A DNA stretch of 55,349 nucleotides, from contig CANRCQ010000002.1 of assembly GCA_947629145.1 (NCBI GenBank), forward strand, positions 1-55,349, read 5' to 3'. The position numbers and the translations under genes were made by a program. Every line of letters begins with the position of its first letter. The stretch's first letter is position 1. The notes beneath the pieces are model-generated. The model was given only the letters and a program-made list of their open reading frames with translations. It was not told where the DNA came from and did not search any database. This document shows, one piece after another, positions 1 to 8,340 of this stretch. This DNA is from an uncultured Clostridia bacterium. Lineage in GTDB: Bacteria > Bacillota > Clostridia > Christensenellales > UBA1242.

Positions 1-1201
1 GCAAAATCTCTTCATAATTTTGCAAATTGTTGACAATATCAAAAATTTGTGGGTGAAAATCCTTGTCATTTCTAACGCTTAAAACTCTTCCAATTTGCTG
101 TGTATAAACTTCAGGTGAAATTGTTGGTCTAAACAAAAAGCAACCATCAACATCACTGATGTGAATGCCTTCATTAAACATATCAACCGCAAGCATAATT
201 TTAAAACAGTCGGATTTGTCTTCTTCAAATGCTTTGATTGCCCGTTCAACGTCTTCTTTTTTGTCTTTATATGTTACTTGATAAATTTTGACATTTTTAT
301 TAACACCGCTAAGTAAACCTTTTTCAATCTCGTCTCTTAAAGATTGCAATTTTTCAGTATCTGTGCAAAAAGCAATAAATTTCCCATTTTTATTTTGGAT
401 TTTTCTCTCAAGTGTTTCTTTTAAGCCTTTTGCAAACTCAGGGTGTCTACGAAGTTCCTCAAGTTCTTTTTTATAAAGTTCCCGTGTCTTTTTGTCTTTT
501 ATTTCATCAATTTTGTCTTCAATGATTTTCGCAGTTTCTTCATAAGAACGCACAGCCATCACATATTCTGGATTTGGCAAAACACCTTCATGGATTGCTT
601 CTGCGACATTCAGTCCACGAACAATGTTGTCTCCAAACAATTCATCGCCCATATCGCGTCTTTTATCAAGATAACGAATTGGAGTTGCAGTAAGCCCCAA
701 AACTTTGGCATTTGGATTTGCACGTAAAACTCTTTGAGTGACTTTGCCACGACCTTCTGCACCCAATCTATGAAATTCGTCCAAAATTATGTAGTCAAAA
801 TCCAAAAGTTTCAGTTCTTCATCGGTCAAAAGTTTAAGTTGATCATATCTTGCAACAATAACATCGTCAAAAGGAACATTGAGTTCTTGGCACAACTTTT
901 CACACAGTTCATTAAAACGGAAAACAATGCCTTGCCTTGGCTCTAAAACAACAGCACGCTTTCTTTTGTATTGCCCGTCTTTTGTGAAAAATCCTTCTTT
1001 TGACGCGTCTACATCTCTGTTTGGCTTAAAAACATTATCATACAAAAACTGAAAAGCAACAAAAGACTTCCCCGTTCCCGTTGCTTGCACAATGCCAACG
1101 CGATTTTCGCCAGCTTCATAAAGTTCTTCCATCTCCAAATAGGTTGGGATGTTGTGGCCTTTCAGAATTCCTAATTTTTTAAGTTCCTGAATAGTTTTCA
1201 T
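1..1201 (-). CDS. SF2 helicase (DEAD/DEAH, ResIII-like), N-terminal ~400 aa; C-terminus lies beyond the left edge
   Basis: Absent from the ORF track because it has no stop inside the window. Manual minus-strand translation from ATG 1201..1199 is open to position 1: MKTIQELKKLGILKGHNIPTYLEMEELYEAGENRVGIVQATGTGKSFVAFQ... Motif I QATGTGKS, motif II ILDEFH, motif III LTATP, motif VI QQIGRVLS. Confidence 0.75.
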   Translation of the reverse strand, partial: MKTIQELKKLGILKGHNIPTYLEMEELYEAGENRVGIVQATGTGKSFVAFQFLYDNVFKPNRDVDASKEGFFTKDGQYKRKRAVVLEPRQGIVFRFNELCEKLCQELNVPFDDVIVARYDQLKLLTDEELKLLDFDYIILDEFHRLGAEGRGKVTQRVLRANPNAKVLGLTATPIRYLDKRRDMGDELFGDNIVRGLNVAEAIHEGVLPNPEYVMAVRSYEETAKIIEDKIDEIKDKKTRELYKKELEELRRHPEFAKGLKETLERKIQNKNGKFIAFCTDTEKLQSLRDEIEKGLLSGVNKNVKIYQVTYKDKKEDVERAIKAFEEDKSDCFKIMLAVDMFNEGIHISDVDGCFLFRPTISPEVYTQQIGRVLSVRNDKDFHPQIFDIVNNLQNYEEIL

Positions 1202-1276
1202 AAGTATATTATAACATAAATTACCTAAATTTTCAATACTTTCAACATCTTTTACTTAATTTCAGTCATAAAATTA

Positions 1277-1285
1277 TGCTATAAT
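1277..1285 (+). promoter_or_regulatory. Candidate extended -10 box (TGCTATAAT) reading into the CRISPR array
   Basis: TGCTATAAT matches TGnTATAAT about 40 nt upstream of the first (decayed) repeat. No good -35. Confidence 0.3.
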
Positions 1286-1325
1286 ATTAAAGTGCCCCCA
1301 CTCTTAAAACACCAGACGAATTGAC

Positions 1326-3009
1326 ATTTTAGTCCTTTTAATTTTCTCGATATGATAAATATTTCTTCCAAGACGTCGGAGATAAAGTATATTTTAGTTC
1401 CATTAATTTATTTGGTATGGTATAATCAAAACAACCGCTCTTCCAGCAGTTTCAAGCAATTTAGTTCCTTTATTGCGCTTGGTATGGTATAATACGATAA
1501 GGATTTATGCGTCGGTTATAGCGATTTTAGTCCCTTTATCTTTTGGTATGGTATAATTTTGCTGCTTCAAAAGCTGTATGTGTCCTAATTTTAGTTCCTT
1601 TATTTTGTTTGGTATGGTATAATGCACTTAAACTTAACCCCAAACAACTGGATATTTTAGTTCCTTTATTTTGTTTGGTATGGTATAATAAATACAAGTT
1701 TATGCAGCAAAAGTTCGAGATTTTAGTTCCTTTATTTTGTTTGGTATGGTATAATGTTGCAGATGATTTAACGGAAGAACAAATCATTTTAGTTCCTTTA
1801 TTTTGTTTGGTATGGTATAATTGACCCTGAAAAAGAGTTAAACGATTTAATATTTTAGTTCCTTTATTTTGTTTGGTATGGTATAATTTTTCTGTCATTG
1901 TTTGCATTGCTTTCATCATTTTAGTTCCTTTATTTTGTTTGGTATGGTATAATTGGAATAACATACGCAAAAAAGTTAGCGGAATTTTAGTTCCTTTATT
2001 TTGTTTGGTATGGTATAATGACAAACTTATTGTTTAATAACATTGTATAATTTTAGTTCCTTTATTTTGTTTGGTATGGTATAATTTGTTATGGGTTATT
2101 AACTAACTTTAAGTCATTTTAGTTCCTTTATTTTGTTTGGTATGGTATAATAAAGAAACCGCAACAAAAGAAGGCGACCTTATTTTAGTTCCTTTATTTT
2201 GTTTGGTATGGTATAATGATGCATAACTCAATGCTGTTGCCATAGTTATTTTAGTTCCTTTATTTTGTTTGGTATGGTATAATAAATTTAACATCTCAAT
2301 ATACTGGTTTAAAATTTTAGTTCCTTTATTTTGTTTGGTATGGTATAATTTTCATCTTCATTGGCAAGTGCTTTCTGCTATTTTAGTTCCTTTATTTTGT
2401 TTGGTATGGTATAATAATTATAGCAAAAGAGATGGGGCATTCTACATTTTAGTTCCTTTATTTTGTTTGGTATGGTATAATTATTATGAATTGGAAGAAC
2501 ATAAATATAAAATTTTAGTTCCTTTATTTTGTTTGGTATGGTATAATTAGCTTATGCGTGGTTTGTTTGGGAAAAGGATTTTAGTTCCTTTATTTTGTTT
2601 GGTATGGTATAATATTCCAACAACAAACATAAATCCAGATTTTATTTTAGTTCCTTTATTTTGTTTGGTATGGTATAATTTCTTTGGTATGTAGTGCAGT
2701 TATTTGCAGATTTTAGTTCCTTTATTTTGTTTGGTATGGTATAATAGATTGCAAACTTGAAACGCTGCTTTCTAAATTTTAGTTCCTTTATTTTGTTTGG
2801 TATGGTATAATTTCAAATCGTCAGTTCTATCAATCTTTTTAATTTTAGTTCCTTTATTTTGTTTGGTATGGTATAATAATATTTGGGAAAAACATCACGA
2901 ATTTTTGATTTTAGTTCCTTTATTTTGTTTGGTATGGTATAATATCAAAAAATACATTGACAACTCTTTTGAAATTTTAGTTCCTTTATTTTGTTTGGTA
3001 TGGTATAAT
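1326..3009 (+). CRISPR. CRISPR array, 26 repeats and 25 spacers, type II-C associated
   Basis: 36-nt consensus ATTTTAGTTCCTTTATTTTGTTTGGTATGGTATAAT. Repeat starts: 1326 (strongly decayed), 1391, 1458, 1524 (variants), then 22 identical copies at 1588+66n up to 2974. Spacers are unique, 30-31 nt. Plus-sense orientation is inferred from the GTTTTAG-like 5' end of the repeat and from the minus-strand tracrRNA anti-repeat. Confidence 0.97.
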
Positions 3010-3026
3010 AGAGGGCTAAAACAAAA

Positions 3027-3071
3027 GACCTACATCGTTGAATTTATCGATGATGTAGGCTTTTTGTTTTT
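3027..3071. terminator. Bidirectional intrinsic terminator between the array and cas2
   Basis: Stem CCTACATC (3029-3036) / GATGTAGG (3052-3059) followed by CTTTTTGTTTTT. An A-rich run on the left side serves the minus strand. Confidence 0.6.
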
Positions 3072-3131
3072 ATAGAGTTTTTTAAAAAAAATAGAAAAAT
3101 TTAACAAAAAATGATGATATTGAATGATTTT

Positions 3132-3458
3132 TTAGAAAAAAGATATTTGTCCTTCCAGGACTTTTTTATCCTTTTTCTTCACACCGCCCAAAAGAATATT
3201 CATGCCGGCATATTGTTTTTCGGTGATAATTAAACTCCTGACAGAGCCTTTAAAAGGCAGATGATTTTTGATACGTTCTTCATGTTGCTTAGCATTTTCG
3301 ATTGTCGAACAAATTCTGCCATAAAGAGAGAATTGAATCATATAAAATCCATCATCTATCAAAAATTTTCTAAATTGAGTCGCCTGGCGTGATTCTTCCT
3401 TCGTTTTAACAGGCAAATCAAAAAACACAAGAATTCTCATAATATTACTCATATTCAT
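3132..3458 (-). CDS. cas2: CRISPR-associated endoribonuclease Cas2
   Basis: 108 aa, MRILVFFDLPV N-terminal strand typical of Cas2, overlaps the cas1 stop, adjacent to the array. The true start may be one of the internal Met codons (e.g. 3440). Confidence 0.85.
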   Translation of the reverse strand: MNMSNIMRILVFFDLPVKTKEESRQATQFRKFLIDDGFYMIQFSLYGRICSTIENAKQHEERIKNHLPFKGSVRSLIITEKQYAGMNILLGGVKKKDKKVLEGQISFF

Positions 3459-4332
3459 GCATCTTTAATTCAATAAGTTGTGGAAATTTCAATTTATTTT
3501 GTTTTTCTTTCAAAGAATCAACAAAAGATTGAATAAAAATTTCAATAGCATATGCCAAAGTATATTTTCCATTTGCAATCACGCAATCACAATTTAAAAG
3601 GTTAAAGATTCTGGTTTTATAATAAGTATCAAAAGGCATTTCAGTGTTTTGATATACAAACAAATCCACGAAAGGGCGAAAAACTTCAATTAAATCATCC
3701 GCAAGATTAAAATTATTAAAAGTGTTGCAGTGTTTCAATCCTAAAAACGGCAAAAGTCCATGCGCAACAAGATTTCTTGCGATAATTCCCCTTAGAATTG
3801 AATAGCCGTAATTAAGAGCGTAATTTATGTCACAATCCAAATTTCTTGTAAAATTAGATTCAAAAAGCAGTTTAAAATATTTATTTGCAGCAACTGCTTC
3901 TATATTTGTGTTGTCGTTTGATTTAACCTTATCAATAAGTTCTTCAAGCATAGCCGCCTTGTTGCAAAGAATCAAACATTTATTTTGATTTTCAATTTTA
4001 TGTTTGACAATATCTTGCCAAAGTTGTTTTTTTAATGGCACGGAAAGTTCCGTTTGAATTTTAAACATTTTTGTTTGGCTATAATGAGTGTTGAAAGGCA
4101 AAAAATACGCACATGGCAAATGGTGTTCATCGCAAATAAACACTGCCACATTGTTTTTTGCAAGCAGGCTTAGTGTGTAAAGTGAGATGTTTGTTTGCAA
4201 ATTTTCAAAAACAATGGCATTTATATCTTCAACAGGAAAATCACTCTGTTTTAATTCATTTTTCAGCATCAATTGTCCATTTTTGATACTCACGTGCGAA
4301 TTTGAACCAACAAAAATATTATAAAAAGCCAT
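3445..4332 (-). CDS. cas1: CRISPR-associated integrase Cas1 (type II)
   Basis: 295 aa. Conserved Cas1 block NYALNYGYSILRGIIARNLVAHGLLPFLGLKHCN...LADDLIEVFRPFVD. Start overlaps the cas9 stop. Confidence 0.9.
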   Translation of the reverse strand: MAFYNIFVGSNSHVSIKNGQLMLKNELKQSDFPVEDINAIVFENLQTNISLYTLSLLAKNNVAVFICDEHHLPCAYFLPFNTHYSQTKMFKIQTELSVPLKKQLWQDIVKHKIENQNKCLILCNKAAMLEELIDKVKSNDNTNIEAVAANKYFKLLFESNFTRNLDCDINYALNYGYSILRGIIARNLVAHGLLPFLGLKHCNTFNNFNLADDLIEVFRPFVDLFVYQNTEMPFDTYYKTRIFNLLNCDCVIANGKYTLAYAIEIFIQSFVDSLKEKQNKLKFPQLIELKMHEYE

Positions 4333-7300
4333 CAGCAGAACTCCTTACGATTTTCCCTATCTATTTTTCTCACATTTCCAAGGATATCAACTTCATATTT
4401 TTCAATTTGCATTTTTTGGATTCCCTTACCCCTGGTTTCGTATTTCCCATCCGCTGTTTCAAAAGCAATTGACACGGTTGCCCTATCTGCCGAAATATAA
4501 TAAACAAACAAGTCATTCAACATAACTTTTTCTTTAACCGCCTTATTATCTCTTGGATAAAAGGCAATCGGCTCGTCAAGTTTAATATGAATCAAGTCAT
4601 TTTTGAAAAGTGAGAATTTAAAATCATATGTATTATCTAAGACTGGCCAATTTTTATATGGCCCTACTTTTGCAATTCTGTCTGGCATATGTTTTTTATA
4701 AAAATCAGCAACATATACTGGAATAAAATAGTTTTTTCCATTCTTTTCATATATGTCAATTCTTATCATAGAATTATTTTCAGCCAAGCCACCATTCACT
4801 TCAATTGCATCGCCAAGATATTTTTGCAACTTAACTGTTTTAACTTCATTTCTGCTGTTTGGATTGCGCGCTGGTTTATAGAATGGTTCTGCAAATGCCT
4901 TCTTCGCGTAATCGTGCGGATATTTTTCCTTGTATTCACGCAATTTATTTCTAAGGGCTTCATATAAAGCGCGGTCATCTTTTCTAAATTTTTCTGGATA
5001 ATTTTCAATTTCTCCATCTTTGTCCAATTTCAAATCTTGTATTTTTGTCTTTGTAACAGCAATCAATTTGTCATCCGTGGTCAATTTTTTGCTGCGAATT
5101 GTCTGTTTGTGTATTGCCCCAGTCACCTTGTGATTAACCATTCTGCTGACAAAAACTGGCTTCAAACTTTTCAGTTCATCTTCCGTATATCCATACTTGA
5201 AAAGTTCGTCTTTATGTTCCAAAACACATGGAGATATTCTTATTTCCAATTCCCTTTTAAAAGCATCAAATGGCATTTGATAATGATTTCCAAATTTTTC
5301 GCGAACTGCTTCTTCAGTGAAAATCTCTCCAGTTGATTTGTCCACAAACACATCTTCACTTCCTATCTTTTTAAGATTGTTGAAGTGCAAATATTGTGTC
5401 ACTCTTTGAATGATTCCATTGTCCACACAAGAAACAATGCAGGCATCCACGGCATGATGTAAATCACTTTCAAATCTCTCTTTTTTAATTCCCCAAATCT
5501 TTCTCAGGAAAGATGTAATTGCCCCATTGACAGGTCTAACAGGCTTTTTTGACAGTTTACTTTCGGCAAAAATCAAATATTTCTCAAACAAATCTTTCAT
5601 AAACTTTGCAATATATCGCGTATCATTAAGAGCGCGTGAATTAAGGTCTTTTTCTTGATTTTCACTCAATCCCTTCATCAAAAGTTTTTCAAGTTTTTTG
5701 TTTTTCTTTTTCCCAACAGGCAAATATGTTTGCAAAGCCCATGCTTCAAAATTTTTCCATCTTGTATCATCATTTCCAAAATATTCAAAAGGAATTCTGT
5801 TCCCTTTGCGTTGATTTTCACTTGCAAGCACCAAAACTTTGTTGTTAAAACTATCATCATAACAACGGCTGTATGGAATGATATGGTCGATTTGCGTGTT
5901 GTTGTTAAGAAAGACATTTTTCAAACTTCCAAACACACTAAGAAAACTCTTCTGGCTGTATGCACATTTGCCATTTTGTTGTTGATATAATTTGAATTTA
6001 ATAATATCTTGTCCGGTCGGCAAAGTGAATCCCAATTCTTTAAGTTGACTTATTGCCCTTTCATTTTCGGCAAAATTATTATTTTGCTGCTTTTCAATTT
6101 CTTTTCTTGCAGAAAAATCCTTGTTCATCTCGCGTGCAAGTTCAACATATATTGCACATGGCGAGCCATATTTATCAATGATTGCATTGACAACCTTGAT
6201 AGTTTGTGAAACAGAGCGCCTAACAACAGGAGATGTTATGTCTTTTAATTCTTCCAATTCGTTATATTTCAGTTTAATTTTTTTCTCTCCATTTTGAGAA
6301 GCCAGTCCTGCATTTTTGCACGCATCTGTATAAATAAAACCCTTTTCAAGTTCTGGATTAAGCATTTTTAAAGCCTTAATGCTTAAATTTCCAAATTTGT
6401 TTGCATCAAGTTCCAAAAGCGCTTGCATTTCTTCCTCCGTCAAACTTGTTTGTTTGCGCAAATATGCAAGTCTTCTTTCATCACTTTTGAAATAAGAAAG
6501 ACAATAGGCAATATCATTCAGCAAATCTTCATGCTCTTTTGGATTGTCCTTGTTTTTCAAACACTTCATAATTGCATAGGAAAATTTCCTTTCAACAAAA
6601 ATCCTGTCGTCATTATCACAGCCACTCTTGCCGCCAAACTTGACGTTTTCGTCAAGTTCTAGGATTTTTCTTACTTTTCCATATTTAACACTTTCAAAGT
6701 TCAAAAATGCATCAATAAGTTTTTCTCTTTGTTCCGCCGTCAACTTTTCGCCATTCAGTGTCATGTGATTTATATTGCAAAGGGCAGTGAAATATTCATA
6801 ACTAAACGATGCCTTAGGGGCTCTTTTTTCTTCTTTAAAGAAAGTGCACTGCCCCACATTAAACGAAACATGATATGGACTTGGATAACTTGGGCCTTCG
6901 TCATATGACCTTTGATAGTCAATCACATGAAGAACATCTTTAACAAATTTATCATCGATTTTTGTGTTTCCATATTTTCTCTGTGCTTCAAGAAGGGTTT
7001 TTGCTTCACTTAAAACATCTTCTCTACTCAATGTTTTTTCATATTTTCCAGATTCATTTCGTGTGTGATACACCGAATATTCTATTGTCGCTCCATCACA
7101 ATGTTTTTCACGCGTTTCGTGATATTTTTCATCTTTAAAATACATTTCCCCAACAGAGCGGAATTGTTTGATATTTTCACTATTCTCTTCAATAGCCTTT
7201 TTCATCTTGGAAGTTTCATTTTCTTTAAGTTCGGCCTTGCGATTGGACTTGAAGCCCCTGTGTTTGGCAATAGAATATATCACCCTTGCAAGCGAATTAT

Positions 7301-7625
7301 CATCAATTTTTTCATCAAGTGCCTTCATTCTTTGAGCATAAATGTCACATGGAGAAAAATCAATTTCCTTTCCGCCCAAAAGTTGAGTTTGCAAAAGTGC
7401 CTTTATTTTATCTAAACGCTCTCTTTTGCGCCTTATATTACGCCTTATTCCACGCGCAACACGCCTTTCAACAGATGGAGATTCCCCTGTGTCAGGCTTC
7501 TCTGCTGGTTCAAACTTTCTCACTCCCAAATCGACAATTTGGCAAGGTTCGTCATTTTCATCATGCTTCATAACGCACCAACCAACCGATGCAATTCCTA
7601 TGTCAAGTCCAATACGATATTTCAT
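4332..7625 (-). CDS. cas9: Cas9 endonuclease, compact type II-C (1097 aa)
   Basis: RuvC-I MKYRIGLDIGIASVGW, Arg-rich bridge helix RRVARGIRRNIRRKRERL, RuvC-II IYVELAREM, HNH QIDHIIPYSRCYDDSFNNKVLV, RuvC-III HHAVDACIV. Start placed at ATG 7625, preceded by GAAGGGGG. The track start at 7640 adds 5 aa. Confidence 0.95.
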   Translation of the reverse strand: MKYRIGLDIGIASVGWCVMKHDENDEPCQIVDLGVRKFEPAEKPDTGESPSVERRVARGIRRNIRRKRERLDKIKALLQTQLLGGKEIDFSPCDIYAQRMKALDEKIDDNSLARVIYSIAKHRGFKSNRKAELKENETSKMKKAIEENSENIKQFRSVGEMYFKDEKYHETREKHCDGATIEYSVYHTRNESGKYEKTLSREDVLSEAKTLLEAQRKYGNTKIDDKFVKDVLHVIDYQRSYDEGPSYPSPYHVSFNVGQCTFFKEEKRAPKASFSYEYFTALCNINHMTLNGEKLTAEQREKLIDAFLNFESVKYGKVRKILELDENVKFGGKSGCDNDDRIFVERKFSYAIMKCLKNKDNPKEHEDLLNDIAYCLSYFKSDERRLAYLRKQTSLTEEEMQALLELDANKFGNLSIKALKMLNPELEKGFIYTDACKNAGLASQNGEKKIKLKYNELEELKDITSPVVRRSVSQTIKVVNAIIDKYGSPCAIYVELAREMNKDFSARKEIEKQQNNNFAENERAISQLKELGFTLPTGQDIIKFKLYQQQNGKCAYSQKSFLSVFGSLKNVFLNNNTQIDHIIPYSRCYDDSFNNKVLVLASENQRKGNRIPFEYFGNDDTRWKNFEAWALQTYLPVGKKKNKKLEKLLMKGLSENQEKDLNSRALNDTRYIAKFMKDLFEKYLIFAESKLSKKPVRPVNGAITSFLRKIWGIKKERFESDLHHAVDACIVSCVDNGIIQRVTQYLHFNNLKKIGSEDVFVDKSTGEIFTEEAVREKFGNHYQMPFDAFKRELEIRISPCVLEHKDELFKYGYTEDELKSLKPVFVSRMVNHKVTGAIHKQTIRSKKLTTDDKLIAVTKTKIQDLKLDKDGEIENYPEKFRKDDRALYEALRNKLREYKEKYPHDYAKKAFAEPFYKPARNPNSRNEVKTVKLQKYLGDAIEVNGGLAENNSMIRIDIYEKNGKNYFIPVYVADFYKKHMPDRIAKVGPYKNWPVLDNTYDFKFSLFKNDLIHIKLDEPIAFYPRDNKAVKEKVMLNDLFVYYISADRATVSIAFETADGKYETRGKGIQKMQIEKYEVDILGNVRKIDRENRKEFC

Positions 7626-7646
7626 AAAAACCCCCTTCATCCTTTC

Positions 7647-7758
7647 AAAAAAGATAAGTCCGCATGGAAGACCAGCGGACTTAGAGCTTTGCGGGTCTCT
7701 AAAAGAGAATCCCCCTTGTTTTAGTAACTTTAATTTGTTTGGTATGGTATAAAGCTAC
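7647..7758 (-). ncRNA. tracrRNA: Predicted tracrRNA
   Basis: The minus-strand anti-repeat (7718-7753) pairs with 31 of 36 repeat positions. It is followed by AAGGGGGAUUCUCUUUUAGAGACCC (compare the UAAAAUAAGG nexus of SpyCas9 tracrRNA) and a terminator AAGUCCGC-loop-GCGGACUU-AUCUUUUUU ending near 7647. The 5' end is estimated from the promoter. Confidence 0.75.
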
Positions 7759-7763
7759 ATTAT

Positions 7764-7793
7764 TATATAACATATAAAAATACAAAAAGTCAA
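7764..7793 (-). promoter_or_regulatory. Sigma-A type promoter for tracrRNA
   Basis: Minus strand TTGACT (7793-7788), 18-nt spacer, then TGtTATATA (-10 hexamer 7769-7764). Confidence 0.5.
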
Positions 7794-7812
7794 TCAAATT
7801 GCTAATTTTTCA

Positions 7813-8340
7813 TCAAAGTTTTTTCTTATAAAAATTGGTGTCATCCCAATCAGGACAAAGTGGATTTACATAAGTTTTAAAACCATTGTTTTGCAGAACC
7901 TTGTTTGAGCCAACATTGTTTACATCGCACTGAGCAACAAGTTCGCTCATCCCCAAATCTTTTGCCCTTTCACAAATCAATTTTGCCAAAATTGTTGCAT
8001 AGCCCTTGTGCCTTTGTGAAGGCCTTGTTTTATACCAAATATTTCCGGAGTGTCTTTTCAAAAAGTTGTTTAAGCGAAGTCTAAGCCCACCCATACACAC
8101 AGGTTTTCCATCGACATACAAAACATATGTTTCATTTGGCAGCACGTTTCTTGACAAATTTAAAGAATATGCAATTTTCATTTTTGCATTTATTTCATCT
8201 TTGATTTGTTGTTTTGTTTTTCCATAAAATTCATTCGTCTGGTCAAATTCGTCTTTGTAAGGAATTTCTTGCAACATTTCATACAAATCGTCATTGACAT
8301 CAATCATATAAGGCCTTAGTTCAAGTAAAAGATATTCCAT
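7813..8340 (-). CDS. GNAT family N-acetyltransferase
   Basis: 175 aa. Acetyl-CoA binding-type segment RHKGYATILAKLICERAKDLG...NVGSNKVLQNNGF. Confidence 0.65.
   Translation of the reverse strand: MEYLLLELRPYMIDVNDDLYEMLQEIPYKDEFDQTNEFYGKTKQQIKDEINAKMKIAYSLNLSRNVLPNETYVLYVDGKPVCMGGLRLRLNNFLKRHSGNIWYKTRPSQRHKGYATILAKLICERAKDLGMSELVAQCDVNNVGSNKVLQNNGFKTYVNPLCPDWDDTNFYKKKL

Follow-up and report, generated by a model that had tools for sequence, protein, structure and literature searches.

In Campylobacter jejuni, the primary 5' ends of crRNAs lie at position 5 of every spacer, and their 3' ends are made by RNase III acting together with tracrRNA (PMC3656092). In Neisseria meningitidis, crRNAs start inside the spacers, at the 6th nucleotide, from promoters carried by the repeats (PMC12477760; PMC5965381), and RNase III processing occurs but is dispensable (Zhang et al. 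2013, via PMC5965381 and PMC12477760). For Clostridium cellulolyticum H10, Fedorova et al. (2020, PMC7038990) pointed out a resemblance between the final 9 nt of the repeat and an extended -10 element; they expressed the locus in E. coli and proposed, but did not map, internal starts, and the crRNAs contain 23 to 26 nt of spacer (PMC7038990). Repeat-embedded promoters are treated as a general II-C property (PMC5965381, PMC12080349, PMC13187072).

The window (the whole 55,349-nt stretch of DNA analyzed here) contains a CRISPR-cas locus. From its sequence, we consider it very likely that the repeats of this type II-C locus each end in an extended -10 promoter used by the housekeeping sigma factor, and that each crRNA is begun separately. 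The locus would then offer a clean, consensus-perfect case of repeat-embedded crRNA promoters from a gut Clostridia family with genomes of about 1 Mb.

The cas genes, the tracrRNA, and the strand of the array

The cas content of the locus is cas9, cas1, and cas2 only; csn2 and cas4 are absent, which assigns the locus to type II-C. Coordinates of these genes and of the other features are collected in Table 1. The neighboring ORFs are helicase/restriction-like (2-1201) and acetyltransferase-like (7813-8340). Translation of cas9 likely starts at the second ATG, at 7625, giving a protein of 1097 aa. A comparison of this protein with PDB sequences identified 21dz, 8jtj, 8uza, and 9ar4 as the best matches, all full-length, with E values of 1e-188 to 1e-200; 6jdq also gave a full-length alignment (E 1e-147). 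We take 8uza and 9ar4 to be Geobacillus enzymes and 6jdq to be Nme1Cas9. Judged by these alignments, the protein is a member of the compact II-C Cas9s, its best solved relatives being ∼1050 to 1150 aa long and aligned with it end to end; the structures bear on the protein and not on how the array is transcribed.

Table 1. Features of the CRISPR-cas locus, with positions in the window
Feature	Position	Strand	Details
Stand-alone TGCTATAAT	1277..1285	+	Preceded by TA (TRTG form); 40 nt upstream of decayed repeat
CRISPR array	1326..3009	+	26 repeats, 25 spacers (29-31 nt); crRNA sense is the plus strand
Oldest ("extra") repeat, decayed	1326..1361	+	Ends in TGATAAAT; box gone
Repeat-terminal TGGTATAAT boxes	First 1418..1426, then about every 66 nt, last 3001-3009	+	
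First of 22 identical 36-nt consensus repeats	1588..1623	+	Last 11 nt (1613-1623) fit TRTGnTATAAT
Mini anti-repeat at leader start	3010..3022	+	Complementary to first 13 nt of repeat (2974-2986 in last repeat)
Intrinsic terminator	3029..3070	+	13-bp stem including G-U pairs, then T-run; follows last repeat
cas2	3132..3458	-	TIGR01573, 77 bits
cas1, type II (NMENI) form	3445..4332	-	TIGR03639, 276 bits
cas9	4332..7640	-	TIGR01865, 755 bits; frame opens at 7640
tracrRNA	7647..7757	-	Anti-repeat 7753-7718, two stem-loops, hairpin terminator whose U-run stops near 7647
tracrRNA promoter-like site	7764..7793	-	TTGACT, spacer, TG-type -10; read by eye; same layout in related loci

The tracrRNA gene lies directly upstream of cas9 and on the same strand, a placement that differs from that of the Neisseria tracrRNA. 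The duplex formed by the consensus repeat and the anti-repeat extends over nearly the whole length, with a predicted energy of -37.7 kcal/mol and the usual 2-nt bulge. A search of Rfam returned no tracrRNA family; the sole match, mir-392, was below threshold and corresponded to the terminator hairpin at 3029-3070. In window 7641-7660, the U-run of the tracrRNA terminator stops just a few nucleotides short of the ribosome-binding site of cas9, so that cas9 expression may rely on polymerases that read through from the promoter of the tracrRNA.

Because the tracrRNA is minus-sense, the crRNAs are plus-sense and converge on cas2. An earlier, sequence-only reading of this DNA had proposed plus-sense crRNAs, convergence with cas9-cas1-cas2, a minus-strand anti-repeat, and a type II-C assignment, all of which are now confirmed by a complete minus-strand tracrRNA and by models of the cas genes. 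The left-hand neighbor of the array (2-1201) runs on the opposite strand, so its transcription would not read through into the array. Protospacers for three of the newest spacers were sought as 24-nt exact matches in viral contigs; there was no match, and hence these spacers gave neither a PAM nor an independent check of the strand.

Within the array, 22 of the 26 repeats are identical 36-mers, with starts from 1588 to 2974 and a period of 66 nt. The plus-sense repeat opens with the type II handle. Older copies at 1391, 1458, and 1524 carry mutations that are confined to their 5' and middle parts, and the copy at 1326 has nearly lost its predicted pairing with the tracrRNA (-10.9 kcal/mol, versus -37.7 kcal/mol for the consensus repeat). 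Decay is thus found at the cas-distal end (repeats 1326-1557), matching other II-C arrays (PMC12080349). The position of the array varies in the family: in locus L031, from the same genus, it lies upstream of tracrRNA-cas9 and is co-oriented with cas9, and in L036 two arrays flank the cas operon, one on each side, with nearly the same leader and terminator after each.

The promoter-like box at the repeat 3' end

On the plus strand, 25 of the 26 repeats end in TGGTATAAT, a perfect extended -10 element, the copy at 1326 being the exception; the motif count and the repeat alignment agree with the sequence-only reading on this point. That reading had taken the box to be the last 9 nt of the repeat, which is correct but too short, as the match covers the last 11 nt, TATGGTATAAT, and fits TRTGnTATAAT. 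This form is typical of Gram-positive promoters, and is reportedly the "-16 region" form described by Voskuil and Chambliss in 1998. The window contains TGGTATAAT 26 times, 25 of them on the plus strand within 1418-3009, against a chance expectation of 0.35 for the whole window and a maximum of 3 across 100 shuffles. The 25 boxes all derive from a single repeat and do not count as independent; what matters is whether one repeat ends in a perfect 9-nt match and whether this match is conserved, and both are the case. A usable -35 element was not found in the repeats, nor were the repeats called by a two-hexamer promoter scan, so any promoter activity would depend on the extended -10 element alone.

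Conservation was examined in relatives of the locus. A single Cas9 query against a collection of genome contigs identified no related loci. When 200 genomes from the family were searched with Cas9 instead, 15 had relatives, at 38 to 55% identity, and arrays were extracted from these without using the box. The 15 genomes provided 16 distinct repeats, and the box is kept throughout. Positions 1-13 and 23-36 of these repeats are nearly invariant, the sole change at positions 23-36 being one T-to-C substitution that gives TACAAT (L045), as in Neisseria, where the repeat box is of the TACAAT type. Positions 14-22 vary freely, and the tracrRNA anti-repeats track the changes. Since the tracrRNA follows the variable middle of the repeat, pairing alone fails to explain why the 3' end is frozen.

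We also counted mutations within arrays, using every repeat copy with at most 9 mismatches from its own consensus in 67 arrays. Only 6 of the 126 mismatches in mutated copies fall within TG and TATAAT, versus 28 expected. First copies may be truncated, and integration concerns the leader-proximal copy alone, so the count was repeated on non-first copies: 1 of the 27 mismatches falls in TG and TATAAT, versus 6 expected (p=0.01), 2 of the 27 change the free "n" position, and nucleotides 1-9 of the repeat are likewise avoided. The published mutation profile of II-C repeats agrees with this distribution (PMC12080349). Taken together, these counts suggest that selection maintains the box in all repeat copies and not just in the one used for integration. 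Two further observations were set aside. Decayed first repeats in L043 and L045 keep the box alone, which is no proof of selection, as truncation from outside always spares the repeat 3' end. A copy of the box at the tracrRNA locus, usually broken at its last T, was discounted, since this position coincides with the start of the tracrRNA, where a change may be neutral.

The same motif was then considered in the rest of the host genome (∼0.95 Mb in 57 contigs, 89% complete, 36.5% G+C). Outside the array, TGnTATAAT occurs at 81 intergenic sites, intergenic DNA being 16% of the genome, versus 38 coding sites, and 56 of the 81 lie no more than 200 nt upstream of a gene on the same strand. This intergenic bias is far above that of composition-matched permutations, which lack such bias. 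Extended -10 promoters thus seem to be the norm in this host, TGnTATAAT marking gene starts genome-wide, and a sigma factor gene of the SigA/RpoD type is present. Conservation, the mutation pattern, and the use of the motif across the genome all favor the proposal of the sequence-only reading that the repeats carry crRNA promoters.

Repeats of the same type were also looked for with a pattern scan, one genome per species. At least 118 genome stretches carry them in arrays, the sources being Clostridia, Saccharibacteria, Haemophilus, Campylobacterota, Bacteroidota, and other groups, and 49 of the 80 repeats parsed from the scan end in exactly TGGTATAAT; the scan required the box, and these numbers describe its spread, not its conservation. 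Uncultured Campylobacter repeats share both ends with the repeat in the window.

The two ends of the array

At its cas-distal end, the array is preceded by a further box outside the repeats. The 37 nt that end with it (1249-1285) align weakly to the repeat, and pairing with the tracrRNA is gone. This TGCTATAAT (1277-1285) is probably either the last remnant of a 27th repeat or an external promoter serving the oldest spacer, whose own upstream box (in 1326-1361) is lost. Similar relic boxes are found one spacer-length before the first repeat in relatives, for example in L033. An external start from the box at 1277-1285 may also occur, giving a long precursor in addition to the separately begun crRNAs.

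At the cas-proximal end, the array is followed by the leader and a terminator. The G-U pairs of the terminator at 3029-3070 favor the plus strand, and an A-run ahead of it makes it usable both ways, also for cas2. We therefore rejected it as proof of plus-strand transcription, as an A-run with a T-run works in both directions.

In every locus of the family, a 12-mer that is complementary to the first 13 nt of the repeat opens the leader, immediately next to the last repeat; it is usually AGGTTACTAAAA, and window 3010-3022 is a variant of it. In the leaders of L033 to L039 and L043, an A-run and a terminator come next. In several loci the 12-mer exactly reproduces the 3' end of the anti-repeat in the tracrRNA, bulge included. 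In three lineages its changes accompany those of the repeat, and in one they do not. Duplexes between each leader and its cognate repeat have a mean predicted energy of -9.8 kcal/mol, compared with -3.6 kcal/mol for shuffled leaders and -7.8 kcal/mol for leaders swapped between loci, and none of 200 swaps reached the observed energy. The signal is weak in other II-C loci. In the window, the end of the transcript is predicted to fold back, 3010-3022 pairing with the last repeat. We suggest tentatively, and as less likely than not, that the transcript of the newest spacer could fold back to form a guide RNA's lower stem, either as a II-C counterpart of the II-A leader-repeat hairpin or as a cis "single-guide-like" end; the mini anti-repeat could alternatively be an anchoring site for the integrase, or a relic. 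The analyses of II-C array ends that we found in the literature concern the opposite (oldest) end only.

Proposed crRNA production and its relation to known systems

The features of the sequence, the strand, the type of the locus, and its conservation are shown above; from them we infer where transcription starts, how long the guide is, and what RNase III does, as follows. RNA polymerase would start ∼5 to 8 nt into the spacer that follows each box, leaving an untrimmed 5' end and a guide of ∼22 to 25 nt. The plus-sense transcripts would continue across the repeats that lie downstream and end at the 3029-3070 terminator. The tracrRNA, transcribed separately from the minus strand, would pair with each repeat, and RNase III would probably cut the duplex to give the 3' end. 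New spacers would be inserted at the cas2-proximal end. At the other end, decay of the oldest, cas-distal repeat would mean that no spacer-less guide is made. The genome contains an RNase III gene (rnc), and the repeat:anti-repeat duplex is a normal substrate for the enzyme, which limits any absence of processing to the 5' ends; the claim of the sequence-only reading that these crRNAs are processing-independent could thus hold for the 5' end but not beyond it.

The 3' end of the repeat adjoins the leader, where the Cas1-Cas2 integrase acts, and part of its conservation could serve integration. Taken further, this would mean that the repeat end is conserved for leader-repeat recognition by Cas1-Cas2, its likeness to a promoter being incidental, and that a precursor begun from the box at 1277-1285 is cut by RNase III and trimmed at its 5' ends as in II-A systems. 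The box does lie at the II-C integration end (PMC12080349, PMC12477760), an outside TGCTATAAT exists, and RNase III is encoded. Integration uses the leader-proximal repeat alone, however, yet older internal copies retain the box while mutating elsewhere; the box also agrees exactly with the gene-start element of this host, and homologous repeats of near-identical type have been shown to initiate transcription (PMC3656092, PMC5965381). We regard this explanation as unlikely.

Of somewhat lower probability again is a locus that is silent or decaying, with boxes that are inherited and have no present function. A reduced genome of ∼0.95 Mb, the presence of a cas9 relative in just 15 of the 200 family genomes, with some matches split or containing stop codons, and the three spacers that matched no protospacer are all consistent with decay, but cas9, cas1, and cas2 are intact here and score far above the family cut-offs, 22 repeats are identical, and the tracrRNA is intact. 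The possibility that the crRNAs are minus-sense and co-directional with the cas genes, which would make the plus-strand boxes irrelevant, is very improbable: nothing favors it beyond the co-directional default of many other CRISPR types, whereas the sole tracrRNA-like gene equipped with a promoter, stem-loops, and a terminator lies on the minus strand and requires a plus-sense partner, and both the type II handle of the plus-sense repeat and the cas-distal decay are as in II-C arrays (PMC12080349). Promoters embedded in the repeats therefore remain our preferred explanation.

The host is plausibly a spore former, judging by its gene content. The genome (G000; C4:6292-7767, C3:27496-29727, C16, C50, and C26) encodes spoIVA, a spoIIE-like gene, and several extra or alternative sigma factors; the spoIVA match is above its curated cut-off, and the spoIIE-like gene is full-length. 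Endospore formation may thus persist in a strongly reduced genome. The sequence-only reading had presented the locus as extending repeat-embedded promoters to a spore-forming Firmicute; this part of it is not new, as the same 9-nt box had already been noted in C. cellulolyticum H10 (PMC7038990). The practical value of the locus is limited; the window gives direct access to its repeat, tracrRNA, and compact 1097-aa Cas9.

The closest comparisons are with three described systems. C. jejuni NCTC11168 (Dugar et al. 2013, PMC3656092) has, like the locus described here, a minimal cas9-cas1-cas2 set and 36-nt repeats of the same family, with an extended -10-like box at the end of each repeat and crRNAs that run opposite to the cas genes. 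The C. jejuni box, GGTAAAAT, is a weaker match, compared with the full consensus TGGTATAAT with TRTG here, and its host belongs to a different phylum; for the present locus, a search for sequencing runs covering 1200-7800 listed none with RNA. In N. meningitidis, the array likewise converges on the cas genes and acquires its spacers at the cas-proximal leader end. C. cellulolyticum H10 shares with our locus both a Clostridia host and an array transcribed opposite to the cas genes. We conclude that the repeat-embedded crRNA promoters proposed here are not new, and that the locus leaves the picture of type II-C biology unchanged: it is an ordinary further example of the known II-C design.
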